64,000 bases of DNA, taken from the NCBI GenBank assembly GCA_041393395.1, contig JAWKKG010000003.1, positions 640,713 through 704,712 on the forward strand, read 5' to 3'. Under the pieces are notes generated by a model. That model made no database searches. It was not told the DNA's origin and worked only from the letters and a program-made list of their open reading frames with translations. Every line of letters begins with the position of its first letter. Position 1 is the stretch's first letter. Source of the DNA: a bacterium (lineage in GTDB: Bacteria > ARS69). Shown in pieces: positions 2,934 to 26,671 of the stretch. The position numbers and the translations under genes were made by a program.

Positions 2934-3975
2934 GCTTGCCGGAGTCCGTTCCGTCCTCGCCCTCCAGCAACCACAGGTACATGCCGCCGGCCGCCGGGCG
3001 GCCGAGCCAGTCCGTGCCGTCCCAGTAGACGTTGTGGATGCCGGAGGGGCGCGGCCCGTCCGTGAGCGTCCGCACGAGCGCGCCGCGGAAGTCCAGGATG
3101 CGGACGCGCGCGTTCTGCGCCCGCGGCAACGTGAACAGGATGCGCGTCTGTGACGTGAGCGGGTTCGGGATCGGCGGGAGGGCGCGCACGCGCGATTCGT
3201 CGAGCGTGCCTTCCGGCAGCGGGGCGAGGCCGCCCGCGTCGTCCGCAACGACCGCCTGCAGGACGGCGCCGTCCGAATCGCGTTGTGCGAACACGATCGC
3301 GCCGAGACGTCGCTCGTCCCACGCCGGATTCAGCGGGATCAGGTGTCGCACGAACTGGACCTGTCCGGGCACACCGGCCGTGAGCGTCTCGTCGGGCAGC
3401 ACCTGGCGGGCCACGCGCGGCCAGCTCGATTCGCCGCCCGGGCCGCAACACTCGATCACGCCGCCCTCGTAGATGACGGCCCGGATCTTCCACTGCGCGG
3501 GCACCGGGACGCTCTCGCCGTCCGGGATCTGCAGATCCACGTTCAGCGTGCCGGCGAGCGACTCGCCGTCGAAGTTGTACGACGCTTCCATGAGCAGCGG
3601 CGACCCCGAGCCGGCGATGGTCTCGGCCAGGGTGCGGTACGCGAACGAGACGTCGCCGCCGCCGGCCACGGACTCCGTGCCGCCGAAGATCGCGGTCGGA
3701 AGCGTCGGCGCTCCGTAGTACGCATGACGGGCGATCGCGTCCGCGTTCGCGAGCGGGCCCTCCGCGTGGTACTCCACCGTCACCACGGCGAGGGAGTCGT
3801 CGCTCTCGAGCGCGGTGAGTCCTGCCCGTGCGTCCACGCAATCCGGGCAGGCCACGGATCCGAACAGTTCCACGAGCGCGCCGCGCGCGACCGGCTCCGC
3901 CGCCACGGCGACCGGCACGAGCGCCACCGCAGGGGCGACGACGAGGAACGTCTGAAACGCGCGCAAACGCCACAT
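2917..3975 (-). CDS. secreted thioredoxin/DsbA-fold protein (ELFGSVACPDC CxxC) with C-terminal T9SS-type (FlgD-Ig-like) sorting domain
   Basis: Signal peptide MWRLRAFQTFLVVAPAVALVPVAVAAEP; CPDC motif in DsbA-like context; C-terminal tail RVRILDFRGALVRTL...IHNVYWDG...GMYLWLLEG typical of Por-secretion tails; start chosen at internal ATG within longer ORF. Confidence 0.6.
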   Translation of the reverse strand: MWRLRAFQTFLVVAPAVALVPVAVAAEPVARGALVELFGSVACPDCVDARAGLTALESDDSLAVVTVEYHAEGPLANADAIARHAYYGAPTLPTAIFGGTESVAGGGDVSFAYRTLAETIAGSGSPLLMEASYNFDGESLAGTLNVDLQIPDGESVPVPAQWKIRAVIYEGGVIECCGPGGESSWPRVARQVLPDETLTAGVPGQVQFVRHLIPLNPAWDERRLGAIVFAQRDSDGAVLQAVVADDAGGLAPLPEGTLDESRVRALPPIPNPLTSQTRILFTLPRAQNARVRILDFRGALVRTLTDGPRPSGIHNVYWDGTDWLGRPAAGGMYLWLLEGEDGTDSGKLTLLR

Positions 3976-4177
3976 GAGGTGATCCGTCGGGGGCAGGGAT
4001 CGGGAACCGGACCGAGGATACGACTTTTCGCGGCCACCTGTGACCGCGATCGTGAGTCGCGGTCCGTCGGCGGGTCGCGGAGCCGGTCGGGGCCGTCGAC
4101 TCCCCACGAGGAGGCTGGGAACGCCGTCGGACCTCGTGCTACGTTCGCCGCGCCCCCCCCACGTTCCGGAGGTCGTC

Positions 4178-4705
4178 ATGCGCGCTCGTGCATTCGTTTC
4201 GTTCCTGCTGGTCGTCGGTTGCGCGAGCGTGGTGTTCGCGGCTTCTTCCGGCGGTGGAGACTCCCGCGACAAGAAGTCGGCCGACGCTTCGTCCGGCGCC
4301 GACGACACCGCCGCGATCTACGACCGCGGCATGGAGCTCGTGAAGAAGGGTGACTACGAGGCTGCGCTCGAGCGCTTCCGCGCCGCGGCCAAGAAGGACA
4401 AGGGCAACGCCGAGTACGTGAACATGGTGGCGTACACGCTCCGCAAGACCGGCCGGCTGGACGAAGCGTTCGAGATGTACGCGAAGGCGTTGAAGATGAA
4501 GCCGGAGTTCCCACAGGCCCGCGAGTACCTCGGCGAGGCGCACCTGCAGGCGCTCCTCGAGCAGGTCGACCTTCTCCGGAGCTACGGTCCGTCCGGGCAG
4601 AAGGAGTACGACCAGCTCGTGGCTGCGCTGGCGGAAGCCGCCACGGCGCTCAGCTCCGACGTCGTGAGCGCCAAGACCAAGGTCCCGGACAAGAAGTCCT
4701 GGTAG
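4178..4705 (+). CDS. TPR-repeat lipoprotein/secreted protein
   Basis: GGAGG 5 nt upstream of ATG 4178; signal peptide + Cys (LLVVGCAS); TPR-like helices (YDRGMELVKKGDYEAALERFRAAAKKD). Confidence 0.65.
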   Translation: MRARAFVSFLLVVGCASVVFAASSGGGDSRDKKSADASSGADDTAAIYDRGMELVKKGDYEAALERFRAAAKKDKGNAEYVNMVAYTLRKTGRLDEAFEMYAKALKMKPEFPQAREYLGEAHLQALLEQVDLLRSYGPSGQKEYDQLVAALAEAATALSSDVVSAKTKVPDKKSW

Positions 4706-6721: not shown

Positions 6722-7360
6722 CTACGCGGGTCTCGATCCCGAGGACCGACGCCGCGGGCGTGGCCCGGGCCGAGAGACCCCATCGTGACGAAAACAATCC
6801 ACGACGTGGTCGTTGACCATCCCGACCGCCTGCATGAACGCGTAGCAGATCGTGGGACCCACGAACGTGAAGCCACGCTTCTTGAGCGCCTTGCTCATCG
6901 TGCGCGCTTCGTCCGTCTCCGCCGGAATCTCCTTGAGCGAGCGAGACCGGTTCCGGATCGGCTCGCCGCCGACGAACCGCCACAGCCAGTCCGAGAAGCT
7001 CCCGGTCTCGCGAACGATCTCGAGATAGGCCCGCGCGTTCTTGCGCGCGCCCTCCACCTTGAGGCGGTTGCGCACGATGTCCGGATTCTGCAGGAGGCGC
7101 TCGATCTTCGCGTCCGACCAGCGGGCGATCTTGGCCGGGTCGAAGTCGTCGTAGGCCTTCCGGTACCCCTCGCGCTTGCGAAGGATGGTGATCCAGGCGA
7201 GGCCGGCCTGGGCGCCCTCCAGGATCAGGAACTCGAACAGCCGGCGGTCGTCCCGGACCGGCACGCCCCACTCCTCGTCGTGGTAGGCGACGTAGAGCGG
7301 ATCCTCCCCGCACCAGGCGCAACGCTTCTTCGTGGTTTCTTTCGGGGGCTGCTTCGCCAC
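6722..7360 (-). CDS. tag: DNA-3-methyladenine glycosylase I
   Basis: Strong Tag-family similarity (CAWCGEDPLYVAYHDEEWGVP, zinc-binding C-terminal HVVDCFRH). Confidence 0.85.
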   Translation of the reverse strand: MAKQPPKETTKKRCAWCGEDPLYVAYHDEEWGVPVRDDRRLFEFLILEGAQAGLAWITILRKREGYRKAYDDFDPAKIARWSDAKIERLLQNPDIVRNRLKVEGARKNARAYLEIVRETGSFSDWLWRFVGGEPIRNRSRSLKEIPAETDEARTMSKALKKRGFTFVGPTICYAFMQAVGMVNDHVVDCFRHDGVSRPGPRPRRRSSGSRPA

Positions 7361-7474
7361 TGGACCCTCCCGATCGGCTCTCGTATACCTTGCGAGGCAG
7401 TCATTTGTCTAGTAGTCTCCGCCGGCCGGACCAGAAGGCGGGCGAGGCGGCCGGGCGGAGAGGCGGAGGCCAAG

Positions 7475-9994
7475 GTGGACGTCGAGCGGTTCCTGGAGCG
7501 CATCGAACGATCCCGCGACTACGGCGGGCAGATCGCGCACGTGGAAACCCTGCCCGAGCGCCCGGCGCGCTACGAGCCGCTGGCCGAGCCGTTCCCTCCC
7601 GCGATCCGGAAGGCGCTGCAGGGCCTCGAGATTTGCGATCTCTACTCGCACCAGGCGCGTTGTGTGGCGGAGGCGCGCGAGCGGCGGAACGTCGCGGTCG
7701 TCACCGGCACGGCGTCGGGCAAGACCCTCGCGTACACGCTCCCCGTGCTCGAGCGACTGCTCGCGAACCCGGAAGGCACCGCCCTCTTCCTCTATCCCAC
7801 GAAGGCGCTGGCCCAGGATCAGCTCCGCGGCCTGCTGCGCATCGCGGAACTCTCGGAGGAGATCGCGGGGCTGCTGCGCACCGGCACGTACGACGGCGAC
7901 ACGCCGTCCGTCGGTCGCCGCAAGCTGCGCGACGAAGGCAATCTGATCCTCTCGAACCCGGACATGCTGCATTCGGGCATCCTGCCGTACCACGCGAAGT
8001 GGTCGCGCTTCCTCTCGCGCCTCGAGTTCGTGGTGATCGACGAGATCCACGCGTACCGCGGGATCTTCGGCTCGAACGTCGCGAACGTGATCCGGCGGCT
8101 GCGTCGCGTGTGCCGTCACTACGGATCGGATCCGCAGTTCCTGCTCGGGTCGGCCACGATCGCGAACCCGCGCGACTTCTCCCGCTCGCTCGTCGGCGCC
8201 GACGTCTCGCTCGTGAACGACGACGGCTCGCCCCGCGGCCGCAAGAAGTTCGTGCTCTGGAACCCGCCGTTCCTGGACACCGCGAACATGGATCGTCGGA
8301 GCTCGAACGTGGAGGCGCACTGGCTCTACACCGAGCTCGTGAAGGATCGCGTCCAGACCATCTGCTTCTCGCGCGCCCGCGTCACGGCGGAGCTGATCCA
8401 CCGCTACACGCAGGAGATGCTCACGCGCAGCAAGCCGGAGCTCGCCGGTCTCGTGCGTGCGTACCGTGGCGGTTACCTGCCGCGCGAACGCCGCGAGATC
8501 GAGAAGGCGCTGTTCTCGGGCGAGCTGCTCGGCGTGAGCTCCACGAACGCGCTCGAGCTCGGCATCGACATCGGCAGTCTGGATGCCTCGATCATCACGG
8601 GCTTTCCGTCCACGATCGCATCCTTGTGGCAGCAGGCCGGCCGGGCGGGGCGGGGGAGCGAGGAGGCGGCGACGTTCTTCGTGGCCTACAACGATCCCAT
8701 CGACCAGTACCTCGTGCGCCATCCCGAGTACCTGTTCGCGCAGTCGCCCGAGAGCGCGGTGATCGATCCCGAGAATCCGTACATCCTCACCGGGCATCTG
8801 GAGTGCGCGGCGTTCGAGCTGCCGCTCGGCGCGGACGAGCCGGAGCTGTTCGGCGAGATCGCGAAGGACCTGATCCGGCTGCTGCGCGAGCATGGTCGGG
8901 TGCGCGAGGTGGACGGCCGCTCGTACTGGGCGAACACGGACTTCCCGTCGCGCCAGGTGAGCCTCCGTCACATGTCGGACGACACGTACACGATCATCGA
9001 AGTGCCGGCGGACACGGGGAAGGGAGACGCCTACCGTCCCCGCACCGGACCGGACTTCGCGCCGCCGGATCCGCAGGAGGCGAAGGTCATCGGCAACGTG
9101 GACGCGACGTCCGCGCTGGAGCTGCTCTATCCCGAGGCCGTGTACCTTCACGACGGCGAGACGTTCGTGGTACGGCACCTGGACCTGGAGGGGAAGGCCG
9201 CGTACGTCGAGCGGCGCGAGGTGGACTACTACACGAACCCCGTGCTGGAGCAGCACCTCGTGCTGCGCGAGGAGCGCGAGCGGGACACATTCGGCGGAGC
9301 CGACACCGGCTTCGGCGACGCGACCGTCACCTGGTTCACGGCGTTCTTCAAGAAGATCCAGTTCTTCTCCACGGACTCGATCGGCTACGGCAACCTCGAT
9401 CTGCCGCCGCAGAACATCGATACGACCACGGCCTGGATCACGATCCCGGCCGATCTCCGGGGCGCGCTCAAGCGTCTCGGCAAGAACCCGGTGGAGGGTC
9501 TCGCCGGTGTACGCAATCTGCTGATCAGCGTCGTGCCGCTGTACGCGATGTGCGATCGCGCGGACATCGGCGGCGTGGTGGACAGCAAGAACCTCGGCCA
9601 GCCCACGATCTTTCTCTACGATCGCTATCCGGGCGGCCTCGGCTTCGTGGAGCACTTCTACCGCAAGCCGCGCACGATCCTCGAGTCGGCGCGGGAGCTG
9701 GTGGAGGAATGCCCGTGCGATGGCGGTTGTCCGTCGTGCGTAGGGCTGCCCGTGCTGCGGCCGGCGCAGCACCAGGACCCGGACGTCGGCGGCGCGTGGC
9801 CGATCCCGGACAAGGACGCGGCGCGGATCATCCTCGAGGAGCTCGTCACACGCGCGGCGGAGATCGAGCGGCAGGCGGGCGGCGAGGGAACGGCGCGGAG
9901 AGTCGCGCCATCGCCCGTGCCGCGAGAACGCACGACCCCGTCGATCGCCTCCGGCCCTTCGTCCGGCGTCGCCGGCGACGATCTTCCGTTCTAG
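7475..9994 (+). CDS. mrfA: DEAD/DEAH-box helicase with C-terminal DUF1998 four-Cys domain (MrfA/YprA-like)
   Basis: GGAGG 5 nt before GTG 7475; Walker A GTASGKT, DEIH box, helicase C domain, C-terminal CPCDGGCPSC; upstream part of 1069-aa ORF is non-coding read-through. Confidence 0.8.
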   Translation: MDVERFLERIERSRDYGGQIAHVETLPERPARYEPLAEPFPPAIRKALQGLEICDLYSHQARCVAEARERRNVAVVTGTASGKTLAYTLPVLERLLANPEGTALFLYPTKALAQDQLRGLLRIAELSEEIAGLLRTGTYDGDTPSVGRRKLRDEGNLILSNPDMLHSGILPYHAKWSRFLSRLEFVVIDEIHAYRGIFGSNVANVIRRLRRVCRHYGSDPQFLLGSATIANPRDFSRSLVGADVSLVNDDGSPRGRKKFVLWNPPFLDTANMDRRSSNVEAHWLYTELVKDRVQTICFSRARVTAELIHRYTQEMLTRSKPELAGLVRAYRGGYLPRERREIEKALFSGELLGVSSTNALELGIDIGSLDASIITGFPSTIASLWQQAGRAGRGSEEAATFFVAYNDPIDQYLVRHPEYLFAQSPESAVIDPENPYILTGHLECAAFELPLGADEPELFGEIAKDLIRLLREHGRVREVDGRSYWANTDFPSRQVSLRHMSDDTYTIIEVPADTGKGDAYRPRTGPDFAPPDPQEAKVIGNVDATSALELLYPEAVYLHDGETFVVRHLDLEGKAAYVERREVDYYTNPVLEQHLVLREERERDTFGGADTGFGDATVTWFTAFFKKIQFFSTDSIGYGNLDLPPQNIDTTTAWITIPADLRGALKRLGKNPVEGLAGVRNLLISVVPLYAMCDRADIGGVVDSKNLGQPTIFLYDRYPGGLGFVEHFYRKPRTILESARELVEECPCDGGCPSCVGLPVLRPAQHQDPDVGGAWPIPDKDAARIILEELVTRAAEIERQAGGEGTARRVAPSPVPRERTTPSIASGPSSGVAGDDLPF

Positions 9995-10003
9995 GAGCGC
10001 GCC

Positions 10004-10870
10004 GTGACTCCGAGCGACGTCCAGGCGACCGGTATCCGACAGCACATCGCCGCGCTCCTGCGGGGCGAGCGTCGGCCGTCGCCCGCGGCGCCCGTGCGGC
10101 TCGCGGACTCGACCCTGGCGACGTTGCGGGGCGCGCGCACCACGCAGATCGACGGCGTCTCGGTGTTCGAGATCCGGCGCGACTTCGAGGAGCTGCTCCC
10201 CGGCGAGGACGCGTGGCGCGCGCTGCGCGACGGGATGGGCCACCTCGCGACGAAGGAAGAGGAGGAGATCTACGCCGGGCTCCGGCCCGCGATCGGCGCC
10301 GATCCTGCGCGCGTGGCGATTCTCGATCTCGAGACCACGGGGTTCTGGGGCTGCCCGATCTTCCTGGTGGGCCTGCTGCGCGTCGAGAACGGTCGCCTCG
10401 TCACGCGGCAGCTGCTCGCGCGCGACTACCCGGAGGAGGCGGCCGTGCTGCGCGCCGCCGCCGCGCTCCTGGACGAGAGCGCGCTCGTGATCACGTTCAA
10501 CGGGAAGTCCTACGACGTGCCGTGCTTCGCCGAGCGCTGCTCGATGTTCGGCGTGAAGACGAAGCTCCGTCGCCGCCCGCACGTGGACATCCTGCACGTC
10601 GCGCGGCGTCGCTGGCGCGGAGAGTTCGAGGACTGCCGACTGCAGACTCTCGAGCGACACGTCACGCGACTCACGCGCCAGGGCGACATCCCATCGGCCG
10701 AGATCCCCGCCGTGTACCACGACTTCGCGGCCACGGGCGACGTTTCGCGGCTGGAGCCGATCCTGCATCACGGTCGCGTGGACGTGATCACCACGCTGCG
10801 CCTGTTCACGGCGCTCGCGGCCGATCCGCCGGCGCCGCTGCGACCGCGGAAGCGGAAGGTGGTTTCCTAG
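10004..10870 (+). CDS. mrfB: RNase-H-like/DnaQ-fold exonuclease (MrfB/YprB-like)
   Basis: Exo I motif ILDLETTG; immediately downstream of DUF1998 helicase, conserved two-gene arrangement. Confidence 0.7.
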   Translation: MTPSDVQATGIRQHIAALLRGERRPSPAAPVRLADSTLATLRGARTTQIDGVSVFEIRRDFEELLPGEDAWRALRDGMGHLATKEEEEIYAGLRPAIGADPARVAILDLETTGFWGCPIFLVGLLRVENGRLVTRQLLARDYPEEAAVLRAAAALLDESALVITFNGKSYDVPCFAERCSMFGVKTKLRRRPHVDILHVARRRWRGEFEDCRLQTLERHVTRLTRQGDIPSAEIPAVYHDFAATGDVSRLEPILHHGRVDVITTLRLFTALAADPPAPLRPRKRKVVS

Positions 10871-13282: not shown

Positions 13283-14047
13283 TCAGCGCACCCGCACCGC
13301 CCGCAACGATCCGATCCTCGAGTCCGGGCGTAGCGCCACGAAGTAGACGCCGGCCGCCACCGGCTGACCGTGGTCGTTGCGCCCGTCCCAGGGCACGTCG
13401 TGCACGCCGGCGTCGAGCGGCTCACCGGACAGCAGGGAGCGAACCCGCTCGCCCGTGGCGCCGTGGACGGTGAGATCGAACCGGGCGGGCGTCGCCACGT
13501 CGAACCGGACCGTCGTCGTCTCTCGGAACGGATTCGGGAACACGACGCGAAGAGTGGAGATCGCCGGCAACGAGTCGCCGGACGCGGGTCTCAACTCGAA
13601 CGTCAGCTCGCGCGAGATCGCGTCTCGCAGGAGCGGATGCAGCTCGAAGACGAGCTCGCGCGAGACGGCGTCGACGGAGAGCGCCCGAAGGTCGATCACG
13701 ACTTCACGTGAGGTGGCCTCCCGGCCGCTCGGAGCGAGGTCGATCACGACCTCCCGCGAGATCGCGTCCAGCGGCAGCGGGCCGAAATCCACGACGACCT
13801 CCCGCGCGACCGCATCCGCGACGCGCGGGAGAAGCGCGATCACGAGCTCTCGCGAGACCGCGTCGGGAACGGTCTGCTTCAGGTACACGGCGACCTCGCG
13901 CGACACGGCATCCCGGCGCGTCGCATCGAGAAGGAGGATCACGGAGCGCGACACGGCGTCCGTGGCGACACCGCGCGGCGGGGCGGCGACGGCCGCCCCG
14001 GCCCACAGGATCATCGCGATCCACCCGCCCGCGAGCCGACGTTTCAT
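13283..14047 (-). CDS. secreted tandem-repeat protein (DAVSRE-V/L-V-I/V repeats x8) with C-terminal T9SS-type sorting domain
   Basis: Signal peptide; eight ~15-aa repeats; C-terminal VFPNPFRETTTVRFDV...HDVPWDGRNDHGQPVAAGVYFVAL tail; start overlaps upstream gene stop (TAATG). Confidence 0.7.
   Translation of the reverse strand: MKRRLAGGWIAMILWAGAAVAAPPRGVATDAVSRSVILLLDATRRDAVSREVAVYLKQTVPDAVSRELVIALLPRVADAVAREVVVDFGPLPLDAISREVVIDLAPSGREATSREVVIDLRALSVDAVSRELVFELHPLLRDAISRELTFELRPASGDSLPAISTLRVVFPNPFRETTTVRFDVATPARFDLTVHGATGERVRSLLSGEPLDAGVHDVPWDGRNDHGQPVAAGVYFVALRPDSRIGSLRAVRVR
13583..13963 (-). repeat. in-frame ~45-bp tandem DNA repeats encoding the DAVSRE repeat array
   Basis: Recurring gacgcggtctcgcgcgag-like units visible in sequence. 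Confidence 0.6.
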
Positions 14048-15318
14048 TACGGGAGAACCGCGCGCGCCTGAATGGCGGAGAGTCCGTTCTCCACATCAGT
14101 GAGTGCGATCTCCCAGGTGGTCACGTTGCCGCCGCTCGAGACGAAGGCCGCCGGCAGCGGGCCGATGTGATCCCCGCCCGTGCGCGTGACGAACACGTTC
14201 ACGGTCGCGTCCGAAGGCACGTTCGTTCCCTCGAGCCGCACGGTGATCGCGCCGTTCGCTCCGTCGAGCGCCTCGTCCTGCCAGGGGAAGGCGAACGTCG
14301 CTCGCGGATCGTCCGGCACGGCCAGACCGTTGAGGCTGACGATGCGCAGCGAAGGATCCGTCGCCTCCGGCCAGATCTGCGCGGTCGCGCCGCTCGCGAG
14401 GAGCACGAGACTCGGCGCCGGGAAGATCGAACCCGTGCCCCCGAGGACGCCCGTGGACTCGACGCGAATCCGCCCCTCGCCCGCCGTCTGGAAGCCGCCG
14501 GTCGCCACCAGCGTTCCGTTCACGGTGACGCCGTCGGCGATGAGACGGATCGCGCCGCCGCTGCCGGATCCGGCGCCGTTGTCGCCGCGCGCTCCGCCGC
14601 GCGCGTTGATCGTTCCCGTGACCTGGATGTCTCCGGCGCACGCCACGAGGATCGCGCCGCCTCCTGCGCCCGCGCTCGACGAGTTCCCGGCGCCGCCCGA
14701 CCCTCCGATGAGCGGCACGATCCGCGATCCGCCGTAGGTCGGAGCGCCACCGCCGCCCGCGGTGGCGTAGCTGCCGTCCTGGGAGAGCCCCGCGGCGCCA
14801 CCCCCGGGGCCGAATCCCGCACCGCGCGGAACGCCGAGGAACGTCCCGTTGCCGCCGCGGAATCCTCCGGGACCCGGCAGCGACGAGAACCCGGACGAGG
14901 TTCCTGCTTCGCCCGCGATGTTCACGGTCCCGGTGATCGTGACGTTGCCGGTCACGAGCCAGACGACCGGGGCGCCCGACGGATGATTCGCGAAGTCGAG
15001 AGTCGCTCCGGCGCCGATCGTCACGTCGGTGTAGTGGTAGACGATCGCCCACTGCGTCGCGTCGAAGACGCCGTCCCCGGGCTGCCACGCGGCATCCGTG
15101 GGCTGGACGTTCCAGTCTCCGGTGATGGCCTGCGCGAGATCGATCGTCGTGCTGGCGCTGATCGTGAGGCTGCCGTCCCAGTCCTGACCGGGGACGTCGA
15201 TCTGGGCGAGGGCGAGCGGCGCCGCCAGGATCACCGACCCCGCGGTCGCGCAGACGAGGGCTTGGCGGCGGACGGCCGAGATCGTCCGATCTCGAACGGG
15301 GTTCGCGAGTGGCGACAT
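14047..15318 (-). CDS. secreted glycine-rich beta-helix-like protein
   Basis: GGAGG then ATG; signal peptide; long G/A/S-rich segment with periodic hydrophobics (GGAGNSSSAGAGGGAILVACAGDIQVTGTINARGG...). Confidence 0.65.
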   Translation of the reverse strand: MSPLANPVRDRTISAVRRQALVCATAGSVILAAPLALAQIDVPGQDWDGSLTISASTTIDLAQAITGDWNVQPTDAAWQPGDGVFDATQWAIVYHYTDVTIGAGATLDFANHPSGAPVVWLVTGNVTITGTVNIAGEAGTSSGFSSLPGPGGFRGGNGTFLGVPRGAGFGPGGGAAGLSQDGSYATAGGGGAPTYGGSRIVPLIGGSGGAGNSSSAGAGGGAILVACAGDIQVTGTINARGGARGDNGAGSGSGGAIRLIADGVTVNGTLVATGGFQTAGEGRIRVESTGVLGGTGSIFPAPSLVLLASGATAQIWPEATDPSLRIVSLNGLAVPDDPRATFAFPWQDEALDGANGAITVRLEGTNVPSDATVNVFVTRTGGDHIGPLPAAFVSSGGNVTTWEIALTDVENGLSAIQARAVLP

Positions 15319-15601
15319 GGGAGGACTCCGGAGGTTCCTGGGTGGAATGGGCGGTGCGCGCGCGATCGCTTCGCGGGACGGCCGTCCGGGGCAGGGTTCG
15401 GCCGTCAAGGCGTCAACGGGGCCGAGAAACGGACATTCGGGGAGAGATCTCCCCTCCCGGACTCCGGAGATCCCGGTATGTTTCCGAGCGTGGAGGGCTC
15501 CCGTGAGGTCGCCGGCGGGGACGCTGGCCCTTTGCGGTCAACTACAGCCGTTCTCTAGCCGATCCTAGCAGGGAGTGAACTGCGGATCGGAGGGACCCTC
15601 G

Positions 15602-16606
15602 ATGAGCACGTCCGGACTCACTGTCTGCCTCATCATCAAGAACGAGCGCTCGAACCTGCAGGAGGTCCTGCCGGATCTCGTGCTGGCGGCCGACGACGTC
15701 GTCGTGGTCGATACGGGCTCGAGCGACGGTTCGGTCGAGCTGGCCCGCGCGCTCGGCGCTCGGGTGTTCACCCATCCCTGGAACGAGCACTTCGCGGACG
15801 CGCGGAATCGCGGCCTGGAAGAGGTCGCCACCTCGCACGCGATGTGGCTCGACGCCGACGATCGCATCGATCGATCCGACCTGGAGCGGGTTCGTGCCGC
15901 CTGTCTGGAGCACGGCCCCGAAGCCGGCTTCACGCTGATCCTGGACTCGGACGGCGCGAAACCGGAGTTCCGGAGTACGTGTCGCCAGCTTCGCGTGTTC
16001 CCCGCGCGACCGGAGCATCGCTTCACCGGTCGGGTGCACGAACAGATCCAGCCGTCGCTCGAGCGCACGGGGACGCGGGTCGTGCCGCTGGACGTCACGG
16101 TGCGTCATCTCGGCTACTCCACCGACGACATCGTGCGCGCGAAGTCGCGACGAAACCTCGAGCTGTGCCGACGCGAATGGATCGAGGGGGCGAAGACGCT
16201 CGCGACCGCGTATCACTACGTGCAGGCGGCGTCGCTCGCGGGCGAGTACGCGGAAGGCGCGAACCTCGTGCGCGAGGTGCTGGCGGCGACGAAGCCCGAT
16301 TCCGCGGAGGACATCGTCCAGAACCTGCGCGTGACCCTCGGACATCTCGAGGAGAAGCAGGGCCGGATCCCGCGCGCGGAGTCCGTCTACCGCCACGCGG
16401 TGTCGCTGCACGCACGCGATCCCTGGGCGGCCTGGCATCTCGGGGATCTCCTCGCCCGCACGGGTCGGGGAGAGGAAGCGATCGCGTGGCTGGAGGTCGC
16501 GGCATCGGCCGACCCGCTGAGCTCGCGCGTGCCCCTGCCGCTCGCGGGCGTTCGCGCGGCGGCGGAGAATCGCTTGCGGGAGCTGCGAGCCGGCACCCCC
16601 GCCTAG
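15602..16606 (+). CDS. family-2 glycosyltransferase with C-terminal TPR region
   Basis: GGAGGG before ATG; GT2 N-terminus (VCLIIKNERSNL...VVVDTGSSDGS...DADD); TPR-like C-terminal helices. Confidence 0.7.
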   Translation: MSTSGLTVCLIIKNERSNLQEVLPDLVLAADDVVVVDTGSSDGSVELARALGARVFTHPWNEHFADARNRGLEEVATSHAMWLDADDRIDRSDLERVRAACLEHGPEAGFTLILDSDGAKPEFRSTCRQLRVFPARPEHRFTGRVHEQIQPSLERTGTRVVPLDVTVRHLGYSTDDIVRAKSRRNLELCRREWIEGAKTLATAYHYVQAASLAGEYAEGANLVREVLAATKPDSAEDIVQNLRVTLGHLEEKQGRIPRAESVYRHAVSLHARDPWAAWHLGDLLARTGRGEEAIAWLEVAASADPLSSRVPLPLAGVRAAAENRLRELRAGTPA

Positions 16607-16859
16607 TCCTTCGGCCGAGGCACGCCGGCAGCGCCCCGCGCCGACGTGTCGCTCGGCCACGGAAATGCGTCACCCGCACACGGGCCCGCCCCCCCCCGGA
16701 CGCGTCGCGCGCCCTTCAGAAGCCCGCGAAACCGACATCCGACACTGGCACGCCTCGTGCAGTAGCCCTGCCCGGACATGCGTCGCGCACTCTCGCCGAC
16801 GCACCGGACTGGGGAACCGCCCGCCGCGCCGGCGCGCGGCTTCGCCGAGGGAGGCCGTC

Positions 16860-17600
16860 ATGCGCCGCACTTTCGAGATCACCCTGCTCGGCGCCCTGCT
16901 CGCCGCCATGTCGCTCGCCGACGCCGCCCCGGCGCTCGCGGGCTCGCGCGTGAAGACGCGCGTCTACCGTGTGCCCCCGTCCCACTCGTACCAGCGCGCG
17001 CACACGCCCCCGACGTTCGCGGCCATCAAGGTCGGCGGCTACGCATTCACCGGGGGCGACGCTGGCGACGCTCTCGGCGGCCTGCTGCTCGGCGGCGAGG
17101 TCGGCGTGCGCCCGTCGCCTTACGTGGAGTTCGGTCTCACGGCGGACTGGGTCCGCCGGCGGAACGCGCGCAGCGAGGTGTTCCTGCTCGACACGCCGTA
17201 CGACCTGCCGGTCGAGGGGGTCATCGACCTGGAGCGCTCCGAGACGGATCTCGTGCCGATCGGCGGTCTCTTCCGCGTGCGCTTCCCGAACGCGAATGCG
17301 CCGGTCGTTCCCTTCGTGACGGGTGCGTTGACCGTGGATCTGTTGCGGATGGGAGCGAGCGAGAGCACGCCGTCGGGTCAGCTCGTGTTCGACGACGCCG
17401 AATACTTCACGGGCCTCGGCGGCACGATCGCCGCCGGTCTCGAGGGAGCGATCGCGCCAGGGGCGTCGCTTCTGTTCGAGGCCGGCTACCATCACTCGCG
17501 GCCGGACAAGGAAGTGGACTGGTTCGGGGATCCGATCCGGGCCCGCGTGGACGCGAGCGGAGGCTACGCGCGGATCGGGGTCACGTTCTCGGCCGGCTAG
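16860..17600 (+). CDS. outer-membrane beta-barrel protein (porin-family-like)
   Basis: GGGAGG before ATG; signal peptide; alternating amphipathic beta-strands; aromatic C-terminus (IGVTFSAG). Confidence 0.6.
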   Translation: MRRTFEITLLGALLAAMSLADAAPALAGSRVKTRVYRVPPSHSYQRAHTPPTFAAIKVGGYAFTGGDAGDALGGLLLGGEVGVRPSPYVEFGLTADWVRRRNARSEVFLLDTPYDLPVEGVIDLERSETDLVPIGGLFRVRFPNANAPVVPFVTGALTVDLLRMGASESTPSGQLVFDDAEYFTGLGGTIAAGLEGAIAPGASLLFEAGYHHSRPDKEVDWFGDPIRARVDASGGYARIGVTFSAG

Positions 17601-17612
17601 CCGATCAGGCGG

Positions 17613-17715
17613 AGAAAGCCCGACGGGCGGGCACGCAGCGAGCACCGCATCATGCGCCCGCCCGTCGTTCCATCTGGAGGACGAATCGGCCGCCGCGCTC
17701 TTCCGCGGCGGCCGA
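17613..17715. terminator. two GC-rich hairpins between convergent genes
   Basis: First hairpin: 11-bp inverted repeat GACGGGCGGGC...GCCCGCCCGTC. Second hairpin: perfect 15-bp stem GAATCGGCCGCCGCG-CTCTTC-CGCGGCGGCCGATTC. No U-tracts, as is common in high-GC genomes. Confidence 0.4.
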
Positions 17716-17720
17716 TTCCG

Positions 17721-18977
17721 CTAAGGCAGGAACTGCTTCGGATTCGCGAGCTTGCGCGGCAGGTACTCGTCGATCACGTAGTTCAGGCCGTGCTTCGCGA
17801 GCGCCTGCTGCTCGACACGAACCCCCATCTTGATCAGCTTCTCGAGCGCCTTTCGCCACGGCGCGTAGTGCTGGATGAACGGATCGTTCTTGATCGCGTC
17901 CTTCGCGCGCTTGACGTCGACTTCCTTCAGGGGGTGCGTCGGCAGGTCGTACTCGGTGATGTCGTCCGGCGTGACACCCAGGAACTTCGCCTGCGGCACG
18001 CAGAAGTACTCGTTCAGGTGGGCGGCGTTGCCGCTGCCGACCTTGAGCGTGCGGTAGATGTTCGAGTACCCGTACGGGTCGCCGTCCACGAACACGTACA
18101 CCGGCAGCTTGCACTCGTCCGAGAGGCGGCGGATGAAACGTCGGCACGCGCGGGTGGGCACCCCGCCGAGCGAGACAAGGATGCACTGGGCGCTCCGCCA
18201 GTACGTGTGCTTCACGAGGCGCTGGAACATACCGGCGGTCTCGATCGCGAGCACGAACTTCGCGTCCGTCTGGAACTGCAGATCCTCCACCGAGATCGGG
18301 ATCGAGTAGGCGCCGCTGCCGAAGCGCGTGCAGTCGATCTCCAGCTCTTCGCCCGTCTCGCGGTCGTGGTCCATCACCACGAGCTGGCCGGCCACGTCGC
18401 CGCCCTTCTCCTCGGGGATGAATCCGAGCTGCTCGCGGTTCACGCCGAACAGCGCCTCCACGTCCTCCATGACGGCGTCGCTCTCGGGCTGCTCGTTGAA
18501 CCGGCAGTCGTCCCAGTTCTTGCTGACGTAGTACGCTTCTCGCTTCGTGGCGATGTCGTCCGTCTGCACGAGCTCCTTGCTGAAGGACATCATGCGCAAC
18601 GTCTGGGCGAACGTCTTCACGGTGCCGACCGTGAGCGTGCGCTCCTTCTTCTTGCCCTTGATGCGGAAGAAGCCGTCCGACTCCCGGTACACGACGTTGT
18701 TCAGCGAGCGCAGCGGGAAGCGCAGGCTCGGCGTGGCCGACTTCAGGATCTTGTCGCGAACCTGCGTGGCCTCCCCTTCGATGCGACTCACGACCTCCCG
18801 GCCGCCCGCGAGACCGCCGGACTTGCCCTTCGCCTTCGCGGCCCTCCGGGCGCCGGACTTCCCGCTCGCGCCGGCGGCGGACTTGGCGGCGCCCTTGGTC
18901 TTCGCCTTCGCGGACGCCTTCGTCTTGGTCTTCGCCTTCGCGTCGCCCTTCTTCGCGTTCGTCTTGCGGCTGGCCAT
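17721..18977 (-). CDS. top6A: DNA topoisomerase VI subunit A (Spo11/Top6A family) with N-terminal Lys/Ala-rich histone-H1-like tail
   Basis: Toprim DxD (FVDGDPYG), conserved E (LAIETAG), 5Y-CAP region; N-terminal ~60 aa KAKTKTKASAKAKTK low-complexity. Confidence 0.8.
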   Translation of the reverse strand: MASRKTNAKKGDAKAKTKTKASAKAKTKGAAKSAAGASGKSGARRAAKAKGKSGGLAGGREVVSRIEGEATQVRDKILKSATPSLRFPLRSLNNVVYRESDGFFRIKGKKKERTLTVGTVKTFAQTLRMMSFSKELVQTDDIATKREAYYVSKNWDDCRFNEQPESDAVMEDVEALFGVNREQLGFIPEEKGGDVAGQLVVMDHDRETGEELEIDCTRFGSGAYSIPISVEDLQFQTDAKFVLAIETAGMFQRLVKHTYWRSAQCILVSLGGVPTRACRRFIRRLSDECKLPVYVFVDGDPYGYSNIYRTLKVGSGNAAHLNEYFCVPQAKFLGVTPDDITEYDLPTHPLKEVDVKRAKDAIKNDPFIQHYAPWRKALEKLIKMGVRVEQQALAKHGLNYVIDEYLPRKLANPKQFLP

Positions 18978-18986
18978 GGGCTCTCC

Positions 18987-20729
18987 TTACATCTTCCGGC
19001 TGCGTTCGAGGGTGTCGGTCAGCGTCTCGACGATCCGCTTCTCCTCGGCCGTTTCCAGGTCGAGGATCTCGCGCAGGGCGATGCCGATGTGCGGGATGTA
19101 CTTCTCGATGTAGGCGCGCTTGCGGGCGGCGTCGCGCTCGCGCTGCCCGCGACGGATGTAGCGTCCGAGCTTGCGACCGGCGTCCTGCAGCGCGAGCTTC
19201 AGCTCCTTCAGGATCTCGTCGTAGCTCGCGACCGCTTCCTTGCTCTCGCTCGTGAACGGCACCCACACGCTCGCGACGTGGACGAGCAGCACCATCGGCG
19301 CCGCCGGCAGCGCGCCCCGACTCTGCTGCAGTCCGTACGAACGCCAGTTCGTCTGGAGGACCGCCTTCGTGATCGCGCAGGCACCCTGCTGGTACTGCAG
19401 CGGCACGCGATTCGCGAACCGGTGCAGCGAGCACAGCTCCTCGGCCGGGAGCTTCCCCCCGTACGCGAGGCCGACCTCGACCTGGAACGGGTTGCCGCGG
19501 TAGACGGAAGGCGTGCGCGTGACCGCCGTGACGAAGTCCGCGTTCATCTGCTCGGTGAGACTCGCCTCCAGACGCTCGGCGCCGATGGGGGAGAGGCAGT
19601 TCGTGGGCGGCGCGGGGATCTTGGTTCGCCGGATCGACGCGAGGAGCCGCTCCGCGGTCTCCGTGGTGAGTCGCTTCGGCGACGTCTCCGGCGAAAGCCC
19701 CGCTCCCTCCACGAGCGTCTCGGCCATCTTCGGTCCGACCCGGCTGAACTCGTGCTGGAAGAACGCCTTGAGCTGGCGCGACTTGGAGTCCAGCGCCATG
19801 CGCAGGAGCATGCCGAGCTCCACGCCGTAAGGATGTGGCTGGATCTCGAGCGCCTCCTCCGGGAGCGTGTCCGTCGCGCGCTCGAGAATCATCTCGGCGC
19901 CTTTCGGGTCCACGTAGCGGAGCCGGACGTGCGGATTCGCGAGCACGGTCTGACGAAGATACTCCTCGGTCCCGTGGCGTCCTCCCTTGTACACGCCTTC
20001 GAGCTCGATCTCCACGCGCGTGCCGTGTTCCTTGGGCCCCCAGTCCTTCTCCGTGTCCTTCTTGACCACGGGCTCGTTCTTGAGCGTGTCGATCACGAGC
20101 TCGAACCGGTGGGCCGGGCTCCGGCCGTCGATGCGGCTTTCGATCACGACCGGCTTGCCGGTCGTGAGCTGCCCGTACATGCCGGCCGCACTGATGCCGA
20201 TGCCCTGCTGGCCGCGGCTCTGTCGCAACCGGTGGAACTTCGAGCCGTACAGGAGCTTGCCGAAGATGCGCGGCACCTGCGCCTTCACGATGCCGGGACC
20301 GTTGTCCTCCACGACCACGCGGTAGCGGTTCTCCGAGACCGGACGGATCTCCACGAGCAGCTCGGGAAGGATCCCGGCCTCCTCGCAGGCGTCCAGCGAG
20401 TTGTCCACCGCCTCCTTGATCGTCGTGAGCAACGCCTTGGTCGGACTGTCGAATCCGAGCAGATGCCGGTTCTTCGTGAAGAACTCGGAGACCGAGATCT
20501 CGCGCTGCTGCGCCGCCATCGTGGTGGCGGTGGCCCGCGGGGCGTCGTCGCCCCTCTTGCGCGCGCCGCCCGCCCGCGGTTTCCGCGTCGCGGCCTTGTC
20601 GCCGGCCGGCTTCTCCGCGCGGGCGGAGCCCTTGGTCTTCGCCGCGCGTCCGCCGCCCCCTCCTCCGCCCTTCGCGGCGGCCTTCTGGGGGGACGAGATG
20701 CCGAGCTCGAGTTGGGTTGCGGGATTCAA
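18987..20729 (-). CDS. top6B: DNA topoisomerase VI subunit B (GHKL ATPase + transducer) with N-terminal Lys/Ala/Gly-rich tail
   Basis: Bergerat-fold motifs ([29 protein letters not shown]); TTG start preceded by GAGGAGG. Confidence 0.8.
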
Positions 20730-20864
20730 GGAGCCTCCTCGGTTGCGGGGCCGCGGGCCGCGTCGGCGGGCACGCGGGGCCCGGGCATTCGCGGCATCCT
20801 ATCCACGCGACGCGAGGCTGTCACGCCCTGGCCGTCGCGTCGGCCGGCGCGCTACGCTGTCACC

Positions 20865-21851
20865 ATGAGTCCCGAAGACGCGCCCCGACGCTACGACCTG
20901 TCCTGCCGCGTGGATCCGTATCGCGATGGCTGGACCCTCGCCAACTTCCTCGCGCACCGGTTTCGCTACCACCCGCCCGAGCAGTGGCGGGAGCGGCTCG
21001 CGGCCGGCGTCGTGCGCGTGAACGACACGGTGGCCGGCGCCGAGACGACCGTCCGCAAGGGAGATGTCGTCCGCTACACGATCTGGCACGCGGAGCCCGC
21101 CGTCGACTTTCGCTACGAGATCCTCCTCGACGACCCGGCGGTGCTCGCCGTGGCGAAGTCCGGGAACCTCCCGGTCCACGCCGGCGGCAAGTTCCTGAGC
21201 CACACCCTGATCGCCCGCCTGCGGGAGGATCTCGCGGAGCCGGAGCTTCGCCTCGTGCACCGGCTCGATCGCGAGACGTCCGGGGTGGTGCTGCTGGCGC
21301 GCACGACCGAGGCCGCTCGCGCGCTCGAGGTGCAGTTCCGCGAACGGACGGTGGAGAAGGAGTACGTCGCCGTGGTTCGCGGGCTCCTCGAGCGCGAGCT
21401 CGCCGTGGACGGGCCGATCGCACGACGCGAACCGGCAGAGCCTCCGTACTTCCGGGTGGTCGCGGCGGGCGGAAAGCCCGCGCGAACGACGTTCGTGCCC
21501 CGGGAGACCGGCGACGTGTCATCGGGCCCGGTCACCCGGGTGGAGGTCCGCCCCGACGGCGGTCGCACCAATCAGATCCGCGTACACGCCGCGCACGTCG
21601 GACACCCGCTTCTCGGCGACAAGATCTATGGAGTGGAGCCCGCACTCGCGCGTCGGTTCGTGGCCGAGGGCGAGTTTCCGGATCTGCTGGCGGCGGCCGG
21701 CGCGCCTCGACACCTGCTGCACTGCCGCTCGCTCTCGTTCGCCCACCCGACCACCGGCGCGTGGCTCCGGTGCGAGGCGCCGGAGCCCGCCGATCTGCTC
21801 GCGCCGTTCGGGCCCCCCGGGCCCGCGATCGGCCGTGGAGCAGCCGCGTAG
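20865..21851 (+). CDS. RluA-family pseudouridine synthase
   Basis: HRLDRETSGVVLLA catalytic Asp motif, GRTNQIRVH motif, N-terminal S4-like region. Confidence 0.85.
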   Translation: MSPEDAPRRYDLSCRVDPYRDGWTLANFLAHRFRYHPPEQWRERLAAGVVRVNDTVAGAETTVRKGDVVRYTIWHAEPAVDFRYEILLDDPAVLAVAKSGNLPVHAGGKFLSHTLIARLREDLAEPELRLVHRLDRETSGVVLLARTTEAARALEVQFRERTVEKEYVAVVRGLLERELAVDGPIARREPAEPPYFRVVAAGGKPARTTFVPRETGDVSSGPVTRVEVRPDGGRTNQIRVHAAHVGHPLLGDKIYGVEPALARRFVAEGEFPDLLAAAGAPRHLLHCRSLSFAHPTTGAWLRCEAPEPADLLAPFGPPGPAIGRGAAA

Positions 21852-21951
21852 GGGGTTTTCCGGACCCCCTTTGTCCGGGATTTCCCCTGCGGGACGCGGT
21901 ATCTTCGGAAATCCGAAACCCTGGAATCCGAGCCGAAACCGAGGGCGAACC

Positions 21952-24311
21952 GTGAAAACGATGATGAAAGAGGATCTCGAAGCCCGGTTGGAGGAGCTCT
22001 CCGGGCACTGGGAGCAGTGGGAGAAGGTCAAGGACCTCGTCGACTCCATGATCGACATGATGCTGAACTACCGGCAGAGCGGTCACCCCGGCGGCTCCCG
22101 GAGCAAGGTGCACCTCCTCGTGACGACCCTCCTCGGCGGCGTCATGCGCTGGGACGTCCGTCATCCCGAGAAGGCGTACGGCGACAAGTTCATCCTCGTG
22201 GCCGGCCATACCGTGCCCCTCGTGTACGCCACGCTCACGGTCTTCTGCCACGCGCTGCGTCTGAAGTACGAGAAAACCGGCGATCCGCGCTACCGGATCG
22301 AGAATCCGGAAGAGCGCTCCATGATGTGGGAGGACCTGCTCGATCTCCGGCGGAACGGTGGCCTCGCCGGACACGCCGAGATGGAAGGCAAGACCCTCTT
22401 CTTCAAGTTCAACACGGGCCCCTCGGGGCACGGCTCTCCCGCGGCGGCCGGCGAGGCGATCGCGCTGAAGCGCGCGGGCGCCGGCGACGTTCGCGTGTAC
22501 GCGTTCGAGGGCGAGGGCGGACTGACCGCCGGTGCCTCCCACGAGACGCGGAACACCGGCTGGGGCCTCGGCCTCGACAATCTCGTGTACGTCGTGGACT
22601 GGAACGACGAAGGCATCGACCCGCGACGTTGCTCCTCCGTCGTCTACGGTTCCCCGCGTGACTGGTTCGGTTCGGCCGGATGGAAGGTCACGGCCGCGGA
22701 GAACGGCAGCGACTGGGCCGACGTGAGCCGCGCGCTGCTGGAGGGTGTGCACGGCGCGAACGAGGGACACGTGCCCGTGTGCGTGTACGGCAAGACGCTG
22801 AAGGGTCGCGGCTACCCCACGACCGGCTACAAATCGCACGGCGCCGCCGCGCCGCAGAACGGAGAGGGTTACTGGAAGGTCCGGCGCGAGTTCACGGAGA
22901 AGTACGGCATCGAGTTCGAGGGCCAGGATCAGCCGGCGCCCACGGACGCGGCGACGTTCCGCGCGCAGGTCGCGACGAACCTCCAGCGCGCCCTCTCGCT
23001 GTTCGAGCGCGATCCGAAGCTGCTCGACTACCTGGCCGATCGGCTGGTGGAGATCGGCGACTCCGTTCCGCAGACCGTGAAGGGCGCGAAGATCGATCCT
23101 GCCGTGACGCCGTTCGAAGACACGGAGTTCTGGGACTACGAGAAGTACCCCAGGGAGATGTGGCTGGAGCCGGGGAAGAAGGGTCCGAACCGCGGCGCGT
23201 TCTCGCAGTGGGGTGCGTACGTGAACGCGCTCGGTCGCAAGAAGTACGGGCGCCCGCTGTTCCTCGCGATGTCGGCCGATCTCGCGGACTCCACGAACAT
23301 CTCGGGGTTCGCGAAGGGCTTCGGCGACCTCGAGGGCTGGGGCTGGTACGACCGCAACGAGAACCCCGACGGCGCGCTGCTGCCGCAGGAGATCACCGAG
23401 TTCACGAATTCGGGCGTCTCCGTGGGCATCGCGTGCGTGAACGTGCACCCGCAGCCGTTCGAGAAGTTCAACGGGTTCTATTCCGCCTGCTCCACGTACG
23501 GATCGTTCTCCTATCTCAAGTACGGTCCGATGCGTCTGTTCAGTCAGATCGCCCAGGACTCGGACATCCAGGTCGGGAAGGTGCTCTGGGTCGCGGGCCA
23601 CTCGGGACCGGAGACCGCGGAGGACTCGCGCACGCATTTCGGGATCTTCGCACCCGGTGTCACGGATCTGTTCCCCGAGGGCCACATCTGCAACCTGCAT
23701 CCCTGGGAGCACAACGAAGTGCCGGTCGTGCTCGGCGCGGCCTTCGCCTCGAAGTTCCCGATCATCGCGCTGCACCTCACGCGGCCGGCCGTGAAGATCC
23801 CGGATCGCGAGGCGCTCGGCGTGGCCCATCACTTCGAGGCGGCACGCGGCGCGTACCTCATCCGCGACTGGGAGAAGGGCAAGCCGCGCGTGGGCACCGT
23901 GCTCGTGCAGGGCACCATGACCACGGCGAATCTGTTCGAGGTGCTGCCGGAGATCGACAAGGCGGGCCTCAATGTCCGCATCGTGGCCGCGATCAGCCCG
24001 CAGCTGTTCGCGCTGCAGTCCGCGTCCTACCGCGAGCGCATCCTGCCGGCGTCGGCGCAGGCGGATCTCATGGCCGTCTCCAACCGTTCCAAGCGACTGC
24101 TGTGGGACTGGGTGAAGAATCCGATCGCGTACGAGTACTCGCTCACGTCCGACTGGGACGATCGCTGGCGCACCGGCGGCTCCGTCGACGAGGTCCTGGC
24201 CGAGGCCAAGCTCTCTCCCGACGATATCCTGGCCGGCATCGAGCGGTTCGTGCGCGAGCGGCCCCGTCGCCTCGCTCGGGCTCGGGATCTCCTGAACGAG
24301 CTCGACGCGGG

Positions 24312-24315
<4 letters not shown>
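21952..24315 (+). CDS. transketolase-family thiamine-diphosphate enzyme, atypically long (787 aa)
   Basis: GAGGG before GTG; TK signature SGHPGGS and GH..PL.YA; [13 protein letters not shown]-site region; lacks canonical TK length, insertions present. Confidence 0.7.

Positions 24316-26671
<2,356 letters not shown>

Follow-up and report, generated by a model that had tools for sequence, protein, structure and literature searches.

What does an archaeal-type topoisomerase do in a bacterium when both of its subunits begin with a long basic tail? The question is raised by an operon in a 64,000-nucleotide stretch of DNA, called the window here, from a bacterium of the GTDB lineage ARS69 (assembly GCA_041393395.1, contig JAWKKG010000003.1, positions 640,713 to 704,712 of the forward strand). 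The operon encodes the two subunits of topoisomerase VI (Topo VI), Top6B and Top6A. The proposed answer is an enzyme of Methanococcales-like origin, encoded in the order B then A, whose tails would anchor it to DNA and whose recruitment would run through the sliding clamp; taken as a whole, this account is considered moderately probable. Its most specific part, that the bacterial enzyme belongs to the clients of the beta sliding clamp and that a motif-bearing tail joined an archaeal enzyme to the replisome, is given about an even chance.

The operon consists of two adjacent open reading frames on the minus strand, exactly where the original prediction had placed a Topo VI operon with B before A. 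Gene identity and gene order are both borne out by profiles, by matches to solved structures and by the adjacency of the genes. Top6A matches the Pfam families TP6A_N (60.8 bits against a cut-off of 26), Topo_VI_alpha and Toprim, with E-values between 1e-16 and 2.5e-60; the Toprim profile is covered over its full length (1-170 of 170, E 2.5e-60). Top6B matches HATPase_c (38.9 bits against a cut-off of 26.4) and Topo-VIb_trans (E 4e-61), and it passes both NCBIfam equivalogs for this subunit, NF003218 (702 bits against 274) and TIGR01052 (559.6 against 380.7). The NCBIfam equivalog cut-off for Top6A is not reached, the best model being NF003337 with 480 bits against 675. Since these models are narrow and lineage-specific, and since the Pfam and PDB matches are unambiguous, this score is no argument against membership of the Top6A family. 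Top6A matches the M. jannaschii subunit (PDB 1d3y) with E 5e-115 and 57% identity over 303 residues, and residues 68-568 of Top6B match M. mazei Top6B (2q2e_B) with E 1e-157.

The catalytic motifs had been called unambiguous, and every catalytic residue can indeed be located. In Top6A these are R146 and Y150 (within REAYY, 146-150, which aligns with R99 and Y103 of M. jannaschii), E246 (within AIET) and D298-G-D300. In Top6B they are N110, the G1 box DNGPG (142-146), the G2 box GQQGIG (173-178) and the switch Lys497 in SESK; N110, D142, G144-G146 and G173-G178 are invariant or largely invariant across 56 Top6B homologues. By its profile and structure matches, the locus is a true canonical two-subunit Topo VI, and it is predicted to encode a functional A2B2 type IIB topoisomerase. 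The stop codon of top6B (18987-18989) and the ATG of top6A (18977) are separated by a gap of 9 nt that holds a Shine-Dalgarno sequence, and the two genes are presumably expressed with translational coupling, B first. Top6B is also encoded on the strand of Top6A in all 76 related loci in which a Top6B was detected.

Other identities have been considered and rejected. For MutL or another GHKL protein, neither a DNA_mis_repair-type transducer nor a MutL C-terminal domain is matched in Pfam or NCBIfam, and the sole profile match outside Topo VI is a histidine-kinase model (E 0.002), reached through the common ATPase fold. Topo VIII, a fused B-A protein, and Mini-A, a stand-alone A-like protein, do not fit two separate full-length genes that match Top6A and Top6B end to end; a housekeeping chromosomal context free of mobile-element genes also disfavours them, both being typical of plasmids or integrated elements. 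A Wadjet or Gabija nuclease is excluded by the full-length matches to both subunits and by the gene pairing.

The tails could be frame artefacts caused by a wrong start codon, an objection that had been named at the outset. The GC content of third codon positions (GC3) is about 0.9-1.0 through both tails (0.87-1.0 in Top6A, 0.8-1.0 in Top6B) and about 0.7 directly upstream of the top6B TTG, in a genome with 69% GC. For Top6B the start candidates are limited to this TTG at 20729 and an ATG at 20519 (codon 71), with no ATG, GTG or TTG between them. Because R64-A-T-A, conserved in the homologue alignment, lies upstream of the only alternative ATG, the TTG is the start by elimination, and together with the GAGGAGG sequence ahead of it this bears out the TTG start first proposed. 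Farther upstream, a scan for sigma-70-like promoters finds 1 site where 0.2 is expected in shuffled sequence. The tails stand: a start-codon artefact is excluded by GC3, the Shine-Dalgarno sites, the position of RATA relative to the internal ATG and the lack of any other start. Read from these signals, both N-terminal tails are real translated coding sequence.

In composition, the Top6A tail (residues 1-61) contains 15 Lys, 17 Ala and 10 Gly, with a net charge of +17, a pI of 11.7 and 3% hydrophobic residues. The Top6B tail has a net charge of about +10 (residues 1-66), and hydrophobic residues make up 3-6% of the two tails. The K:R ratio is 15:4 in the Top6A tail compared with 26:25 in the core, and this enrichment of Lys (AAG) runs against the 69% GC bias. 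At the DNA level the Top6A tail has a weak 6-nt periodicity, with CTTCGC present seven times. In an AlphaFold2 (AF2) model of Top6B, built from a 56-sequence alignment, residues 1-59 have a confidence score (pLDDT) below 50 and no secondary structure, and the core is well modelled. The AF2 model of Top6A is poor overall (mean pLDDT 52.7); its tail residues 1-57 have the lowest pLDDT and no secondary structure, which adds little beyond composition. Both tails are thus predicted to be intrinsically disordered, and the disorder prediction called for earlier is most informative for Top6B.

Lys/Ala-rich N-terminal extensions on both subunits had been described in the original prediction, which gave their length as about 60-90 residues and likened them to histone H1 and HU. 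The extensions are present on both subunits and have no counterpart in the solved archaeal enzymes. Their length falls at the lower end of that range, at 61 residues in A and about 63 in B. The likeness holds for composition and does not extend to profiles, as no H1/HC2 Pfam profile matches either window protein at E<=0.01. Two homologues, P0029 and P0133, have precomputed matches to PF07382 (HC2). For the window tails, as judged by these profiles, the resemblance to histone H1 and HU is compositional only. A role of the tails in nucleoid targeting or DNA binding is plausible.

The tails are not peculiar to the window. Proteins identical to its two subunits are already in NCBI as unremarked annotations of metagenome-assembled genomes (MAGs), and relatives at 66-89% identity are very numerous in MAGs of Krumholzibacteriota, Eisenbacteria, Thermoanaerobaculia/Acidobacteriota, Gemmatimonadota and Myxococcota. 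A tail of at least 15 aa is found in 107 of the 120 top Top6A homologues (median 37 aa, maximum 101 aa). Pooled, the Top6A tails consist of 27% K, 23% A, 10% R and 2% D+E, and the net charge is at least +0.15 per residue in 104 of the 107. Top6B tails are more variable; their median length is 22.5 aa, and a length of at least 40 aa is reached by 39 of 120. When Top6B is sampled family-wide, with one representative per 50%-identity cluster, the core is preceded by no more than 10 aa in 69 of 132 representatives; most of the long basic tails belong to the representatives closest to the query, and a few of low identity have basic tails as well. Across the homologues compared, this lineage of bacterial Topo VI is thus marked by basic tails throughout the clade.

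The same family-wide set includes some other unusual proteins. Five representatives (P0281, P0297, P0304, P0317 and P0386) have short, very acidic N-termini with [FI]QSTL[GD] within the first 10 residues; these look haloarchaeal in style. In several representatives longer than 1000 aa (P0241, P0244, P0245, P0257, P0262 and others), the match to the query is split near the G2 box by an insertion of about 400-570 aa. Such insertions are probably inteins, including those in bacterial-type proteins. One of these bacterial-type proteins, P0241, has a basic tail with QMALV.

The tails had originally been taken as pure low complexity, and this overlooked a conserved linear motif inside them. In the window it is QLELGI, near the start of Top6B, a candidate beta-clamp-binding motif of the hexapeptide type. 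The window subclade (P0121-P0123) has MN[PS]ATQLELGIS in common over residues 1-12, and the next 50 or so residues cannot be aligned until the core begins. Such conservation of residues 1-12 next to diverged sequence is what a functional short linear motif usually looks like. Known clamp motifs include QLGLF of Pol II, QADMF and QVELEF of Pol III alpha, QLVLGL of Pol IV, QLNLF of UmuC and QVEMEF of RecB (PMC3716654).

Related strings recur in other members of the lineage. Upstream of the Top6B core in 76 species-level loci, QLSLM, QLGLF, QLRLF, QMDLF, TLDLF and QLDMF are found repeatedly. A strict pattern was fixed from the literature before testing: Qphi-x-[LM][FL] or Qphi-x-[LM]-x-[FL], the revised form of an earlier consensus, QL[SD]LF. 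This pattern occurs in 12 of 145 Top6B tails, compared with 0.21 expected, and none of 2000 composition-preserving shuffles reaches 12. An independent set of 116 Top6B tails, retrieved after the first test, has it in 43 tails against 0.18 expected (shuffle maximum 3). These include QLDLF, the canonical consensus, 10 times and QLGLF, identical to the E. coli Pol II motif, 24 times. A further 43 tails of the independent set have QMDLF.

Some apparent absences can be traced to the annotation. In twelve proteins that seem to lack the motif, the annotated sequence begins at the motif's own Met, ten times with MDLF, once with MNLF and once with MQLF. Two of the MDLF proteins, P0458 and P0474, were examined at the DNA level: their reading frames extend upstream, giving ...SNVIQMDLF and ...GNVVQMDLF, and include a basic segment and another Met, so both starts are miscalls. 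The deposited annotation truncates the tail and splits the motif in these two loci (L081, 1351-1560, for P0458; L082, 1390-1560, for P0474). Deposited starts at the Met inside QMDLF are seen in P0430, P0448, P0458, P0459, P0466, P0467, P0474, P0488 and P0510.

A different clade has the motif on Top6A instead, in the form Q-[GA]-E-L-[GSD]-F-[GD]. Its variants QVELDF and QAELDF differ by a single residue from QVELEF, the validated motif of Pol III alpha, and QLILGL differs equally little from the validated Pol IV motif QLVLGL. Motif-bearing tail peptides of relatives include KRVQLGLFEEA (L078), SSQAELSFGTPG (L023) and NVIQMDLFRAAE (L081). Members of the clade with the motif on Top6A (L019, L023, L025, L030, L034, L039, L044, L046, L053 and L055) also have a second conserved element, K[AT]SF[ST]P, at the end of the tail, just before the core.

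One subunit or the other has the motif, never both. Of the 67 species loci in which both N-termini are readable, 25 have it only on A, 24 only on B and 18 on neither subunit; none has it on both. A long motif-bearing tail on one subunit goes with a minimal tail on the other. About 73% of species loci and about 90% of the independent Top6B set retain the motif, amid tail sequence that cannot be aligned, and the cores are 73-87% identical with or without it and whichever subunit carries it. A search of 391,000 residues of open reading frames, from all loci and the window, gives 31 matches to the pattern, every one of them in a Topo VI tail. Among 120 matches, no cultured organism with the motif was found. 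The pattern counts suggest that Topo VI tails carry a putative clamp-binding motif, enriched far above chance.

The archaeal side of the family was searched as well. An ancestral archaeal PCNA-interacting (PIP) box on Top6B was rejected, as its N-terminal "matches" are only the conserved strap helix. One Top6B representative, P0358 (649 aa, 37% identity), has a textbook PIP box at its extreme C-terminus, ...KKAEKKPQNTLDSYFG; it is the sole case among 150 representatives, where 0.2 is expected. This peptide suggests that some archaeal-type Topo VI may also be clamp-tethered.

These features can be joined in a model for the evolution and use of the tails. The bacterial lineage would derive from a Methanococcales-like archaeal donor, and each subunit would then have gained a disordered polycationic tail at its N-terminus. 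The tails would act as non-specific electrostatic anchors on DNA, raising the affinity of the enzyme for DNA and its residence time there; this role is proposed by analogy with the lysine repeats of actinobacterial (Streptomyces) TopA. The motif in one of the tails would dock the enzyme on the beta clamp (DnaN) left on newly replicated DNA, and the two motifs of a heterotetramer would be matched to the two pockets of the clamp dimer. Docking would concentrate the decatenase behind replication forks, the site of precatenanes. Precatenanes behind the fork are the classical substrate of a decatenase (PMC13220808). The N-terminus of Top6B lies next to the strap, the domain-swapping element on top of the ATP gate (PMC13040014), and a Top6B tail at the strap would be in a good position both for contact with DNA as it enters and for reaching a partner. 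Outside Pseudomonadota and Terrabacteria, the surveyed bacteria with Topo VI have no topo IV (PMC11302465), so that a decatenase role linked to replication is reasonable. The inferred parts of the model are that the tails bind DNA, that the motif binds DnaN and that the enzyme works coupled to replication.

Several points weigh against docking on the clamp. The window's own QLELGI ends in Ile instead of Phe or Leu and misses the strict pattern, and most of its closest relatives (L001, L003, L004 and L006-L014) have basic tails without the motif. At position 2, where the consensus calls for an aliphatic residue, QGELGF, the most frequent variant on Top6A, has Gly and QMDLF has Met. Since the sequences are related, the counts represent the long-term upkeep of a small number of ancestral states and not a series of independent gains; likewise, the Fisher p of 5e-7 for A-versus-B exclusivity overstates independence, because the A-or-B state follows clades. 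Among the 391,000 residues there is no other protein with the pattern from which the local form of a clamp motif in these lineages could be read. A recent clamp review names no bacterial topoisomerase as a partner of the beta clamp, and names Topo I and Topo IIalpha for PCNA. Clamp docking of Topo VI, a proposal made from sequence, would have no bacterial precedent.

The alternative that survives best is that the tails are purely non-specific DNA-binding or nucleoid modules, like the tails of H1 and HU, and that the motif has no relation to the clamp. It would then be a hinge or contact element, or bind another partner such as SMC/condensin, as ParC binds MukB in E. coli. The extreme basic composition and the disorder are what such modules would have, two homologues do match HC2, and the relatives nearest to the window keep basic tails without the motif. 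Lysine repeats alone are enough to give Streptomyces TopA its processivity (PMC5714199). Topo IV of E. coli is known to owe its place on the chromosome to the SMC complex MukBEF (PMC5061553), and not to the clamp. However, modules of this kind leave unexplained why a motif of clamp consensus, including exact QLDLF and QLGLF, is retained amid an unalignable tail, and why it is never on both subunits. This explanation is judged unlikely, though it has to be taken seriously.

Another explanation is that the motif docks within the enzyme itself, in the same subunit or between subunits, for instance to regulate the ATP gate or the assembly of A with B. A single copy per A-B pair, on A or on B and never on both, would follow naturally, and the Top6B N-terminus next to the ATP-gate strap (PMC13040014) is a suitable place for it. 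Nevertheless, AF2 leaves the window motif undocked on Top6B (pLDDT about 36), archaeal enzymes work without the motif, and with core identity the same regardless of motif state no co-varying receptor site is evident. Docking of this kind is improbable. Least probable is that the tails are neutral slippage expansions of low complexity or wrong-start artefacts, for although their length and sequence vary widely, the Top6A tail DNA has its weak 6-nt periodicity and gene callers demonstrably misplace some starts, the window starts are fixed by Shine-Dalgarno sequences, GC3 and elimination, Lys (AAG) enrichment opposes the GC bias, and 104 of 107 tails keep the basic composition with a conserved motif embedded.

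If Topo VI does dock on the clamp, no type II topoisomerase would have been known before it to have such a tether to the clamp of bacteria, and QLELGI of the window would be one of the motifs involved. It would provide a replication-coupled decatenase in phyla without topo IV, and a testable mechanism by which newly replicated DNA is unlinked in large phyla that are mostly uncultured (Krumholzibacteriota, Eisenbacteria, Acidobacteriota, Myxococcota and Gemmatimonadota). A horizontally acquired archaeal machine would have been integrated into a bacterial network by the gain of a short linear motif, and the beta-clamp interactome would gain a new class of client. This interactome is an antibiotic target. 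Without the link to the clamp, a type IIB enzyme with a polycationic tail on each subunit would still have an undescribed accessory feature. The tails are likely to alter processivity and the affinity for DNA, a point of relevance for in-vitro studies of the Topo VI family, which is known for its weak, distributive activity. Bacterial Topo VI itself is already known. The new part appears to be the tails and the clamp-type motif, since clade-wide basic tails combined with such a motif on either subunit appear to be undescribed in the literature searched.

Table 1. Features of the top6B-top6A operon (positions are those of the window)
Feature	Position	Strand	Details
top6A, Topo VI subunit A: winged helix bearing the catalytic Tyr150, followed by Toprim	17721-18977	-	418 aa, ATG start
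Top6A N-terminal tail, aa 1-61, Lys/Ala/Gly-rich, KAKTK repeats	18795-18977	-	composition, GC3
Shine-Dalgarno GGAGAG between top6B stop and top6A ATG	18981-18986	-	direct reading; 3 nt before ATG
top6B, Topo VI subunit B: GHKL ATPase, H2TH region, transducer	18987-20729	-	580 aa, TTG start
Top6B N-terminal tail, about aa 1-63, Ala/Gly/Lys/Arg-rich, run of 7 Gly	20541-20729	-	composition, GC3, AF2
QLELGI, Top6B aa 6-11, candidate beta-clamp-binding motif, hexapeptide type	20697-20714	-	compare Pol IV QLVLGL
Shine-Dalgarno GAGGAGG, 4 nt upstream of top6B TTG	20734-20740	-	direct reading
Sigma-70-like promoter candidate GTGACA-17 nt-TAGGAT, about 70 nt upstream of TTG	20796-20824	-	consensus match only

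The surroundings of the operon are those of an ordinary chromosome. Genes in the window include FtsH, TilS, IMPDH, CdaA, an ECF sigma factor, glycosyltransferases and an MrfA/MrfB-like pair, and an RluA-type pseudouridine synthase is divergent from top6B. As had been noted at the start, the window contains no gyrase or topo IV gene; dnaN and mobile-element genes are likewise absent from it. A mobile island was considered and rejected, given the housekeeping neighbours and the lack of any compositional anomaly. The six genes that flank the operon (14047-26671) have no homologue within 6 kb of top6BA in 80 related loci (L001-L080), and despite these unshared flanks the enzyme cores retain their 73-87% identity across phyla. 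This combination fits the secondary transfers proposed in the literature, and a cassette-like history of the operon is possible, as far as gene neighbourhoods indicate. In two unrelated metagenome contigs, DNA glycosylase genes adjoin top6BA (L082, 476-1387; L081, 4294-4722). They are of the Fpg/Nei type and the 3-methyladenine type, and coincidence is possible.

A few other genes of the window can be described. On the plus strand, the reading frame at 6785-9994 encodes a helicase of 1069 aa whose domains are DEAD, Helicase_C, HRQ1 winged-helix and MrfA Zn-binding; directly after it comes a protein of the RNase_H superfamily (RNase_H_2, 10004-10870); from their domains the two look like a DNA repair pair of the MrfA/MrfB type. 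Three minus-strand genes (2917-4308, 13283-14047 and 14047-15408) encode two proteins with C-terminal FlgD Ig-like domains and a Gly-rich neighbour, which is 453 aa long, secreted-looking and without a Pfam match. They may form a cell-surface gene cluster. Finally, a transketolase-like reading frame (21628-24315, plus strand) has an improbable long N-terminal extension, and Pfam detects only an N-terminal TPP-binding domain in it. Its true start is probably near 21961.

The closest known systems are the archaeal Topo VI enzymes (1d3y; M. mazei 2q2e and a 2026 cryo-EM structure; S. shibatae 2zbk), which have the same two-subunit architecture, domains and catalytic residues. The window enzyme differs from them in its bacterial host and in some 45-60 extra basic, disordered N-terminal residues on each subunit, which the solved archaeal enzymes lack. 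Its Top6B also has no Ig-like C-terminal domain as in M. mazei (580 compared with 621 aa; the alignment ends at about residue 568). Top6A is more similar to that of Methanococcales than to the Methanosarcina and Sulfolobus enzymes, which fits a published bacterial cluster next to Methanococcales (PMC11302465).

In bacteria, Topo VI was originally described as sporadic, and this is already documented along with horizontal transfer: Allen & Maxwell (2024, PMC11302465) report a sporadic distribution, an archaeal origin by horizontal gene transfer and one cluster adjacent to Methanococcales. Host groups in their survey usually have gyrase and lack topo IV (PMC11302465). The survey spans 17 families, from Myxococcota, Planctomycetota, Nitrospirota, Bdellovibrionota and others (PMC11302465). 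Cultured bacteria with Topo VI that it lists include Anaeromyxobacter dehalogenans, Vulgatibacter incomptus, Pirellula staleyi and Bdellovibrio bacteriovorus (PMC11302465). The lineage described here, in contrast, is abundant in MAGs of Krumholzibacteriota, Eisenbacteria, Thermoanaerobaculia/Acidobacteriota and Gemmatimonadota, which are not listed there. The words lysine, tail and disordered are absent from the main text of the survey (PMC11302465).

An example of a similar tail on a topoisomerase can be found in actinobacterial TopA (Strzalka et al. 2017, PMC5714199). This enzyme too belongs to GC-rich bacteria and has a Lys/Ala-rich disordered tail, and in Streptomyces its lysine repeats stabilise the enzyme-DNA complex and give processivity (PMC5714199). 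Unlike Topo VI, which is type IIB with N-terminal tails, TopA is a type IA enzyme with a C-terminal tail on a single polypeptide, and no clamp motif has been reported for it. The same Lys/Ala-rich, low-complexity basic composition is seen in the tails of mycobacterial HupB, Streptomyces HupS and chlamydial Hc1 and Hc2; those are architectural proteins, whereas the tails of Topo VI are on an enzyme. The validated clamp motifs, for their part, are likewise penta- or hexapeptides that begin with Gln, have Leu or Met at position 4, end in Phe or Leu and lie on flexible termini. They belong to polymerases and repair enzymes, while those of Topo VI are predicted and often have Gly or Met at position 2.

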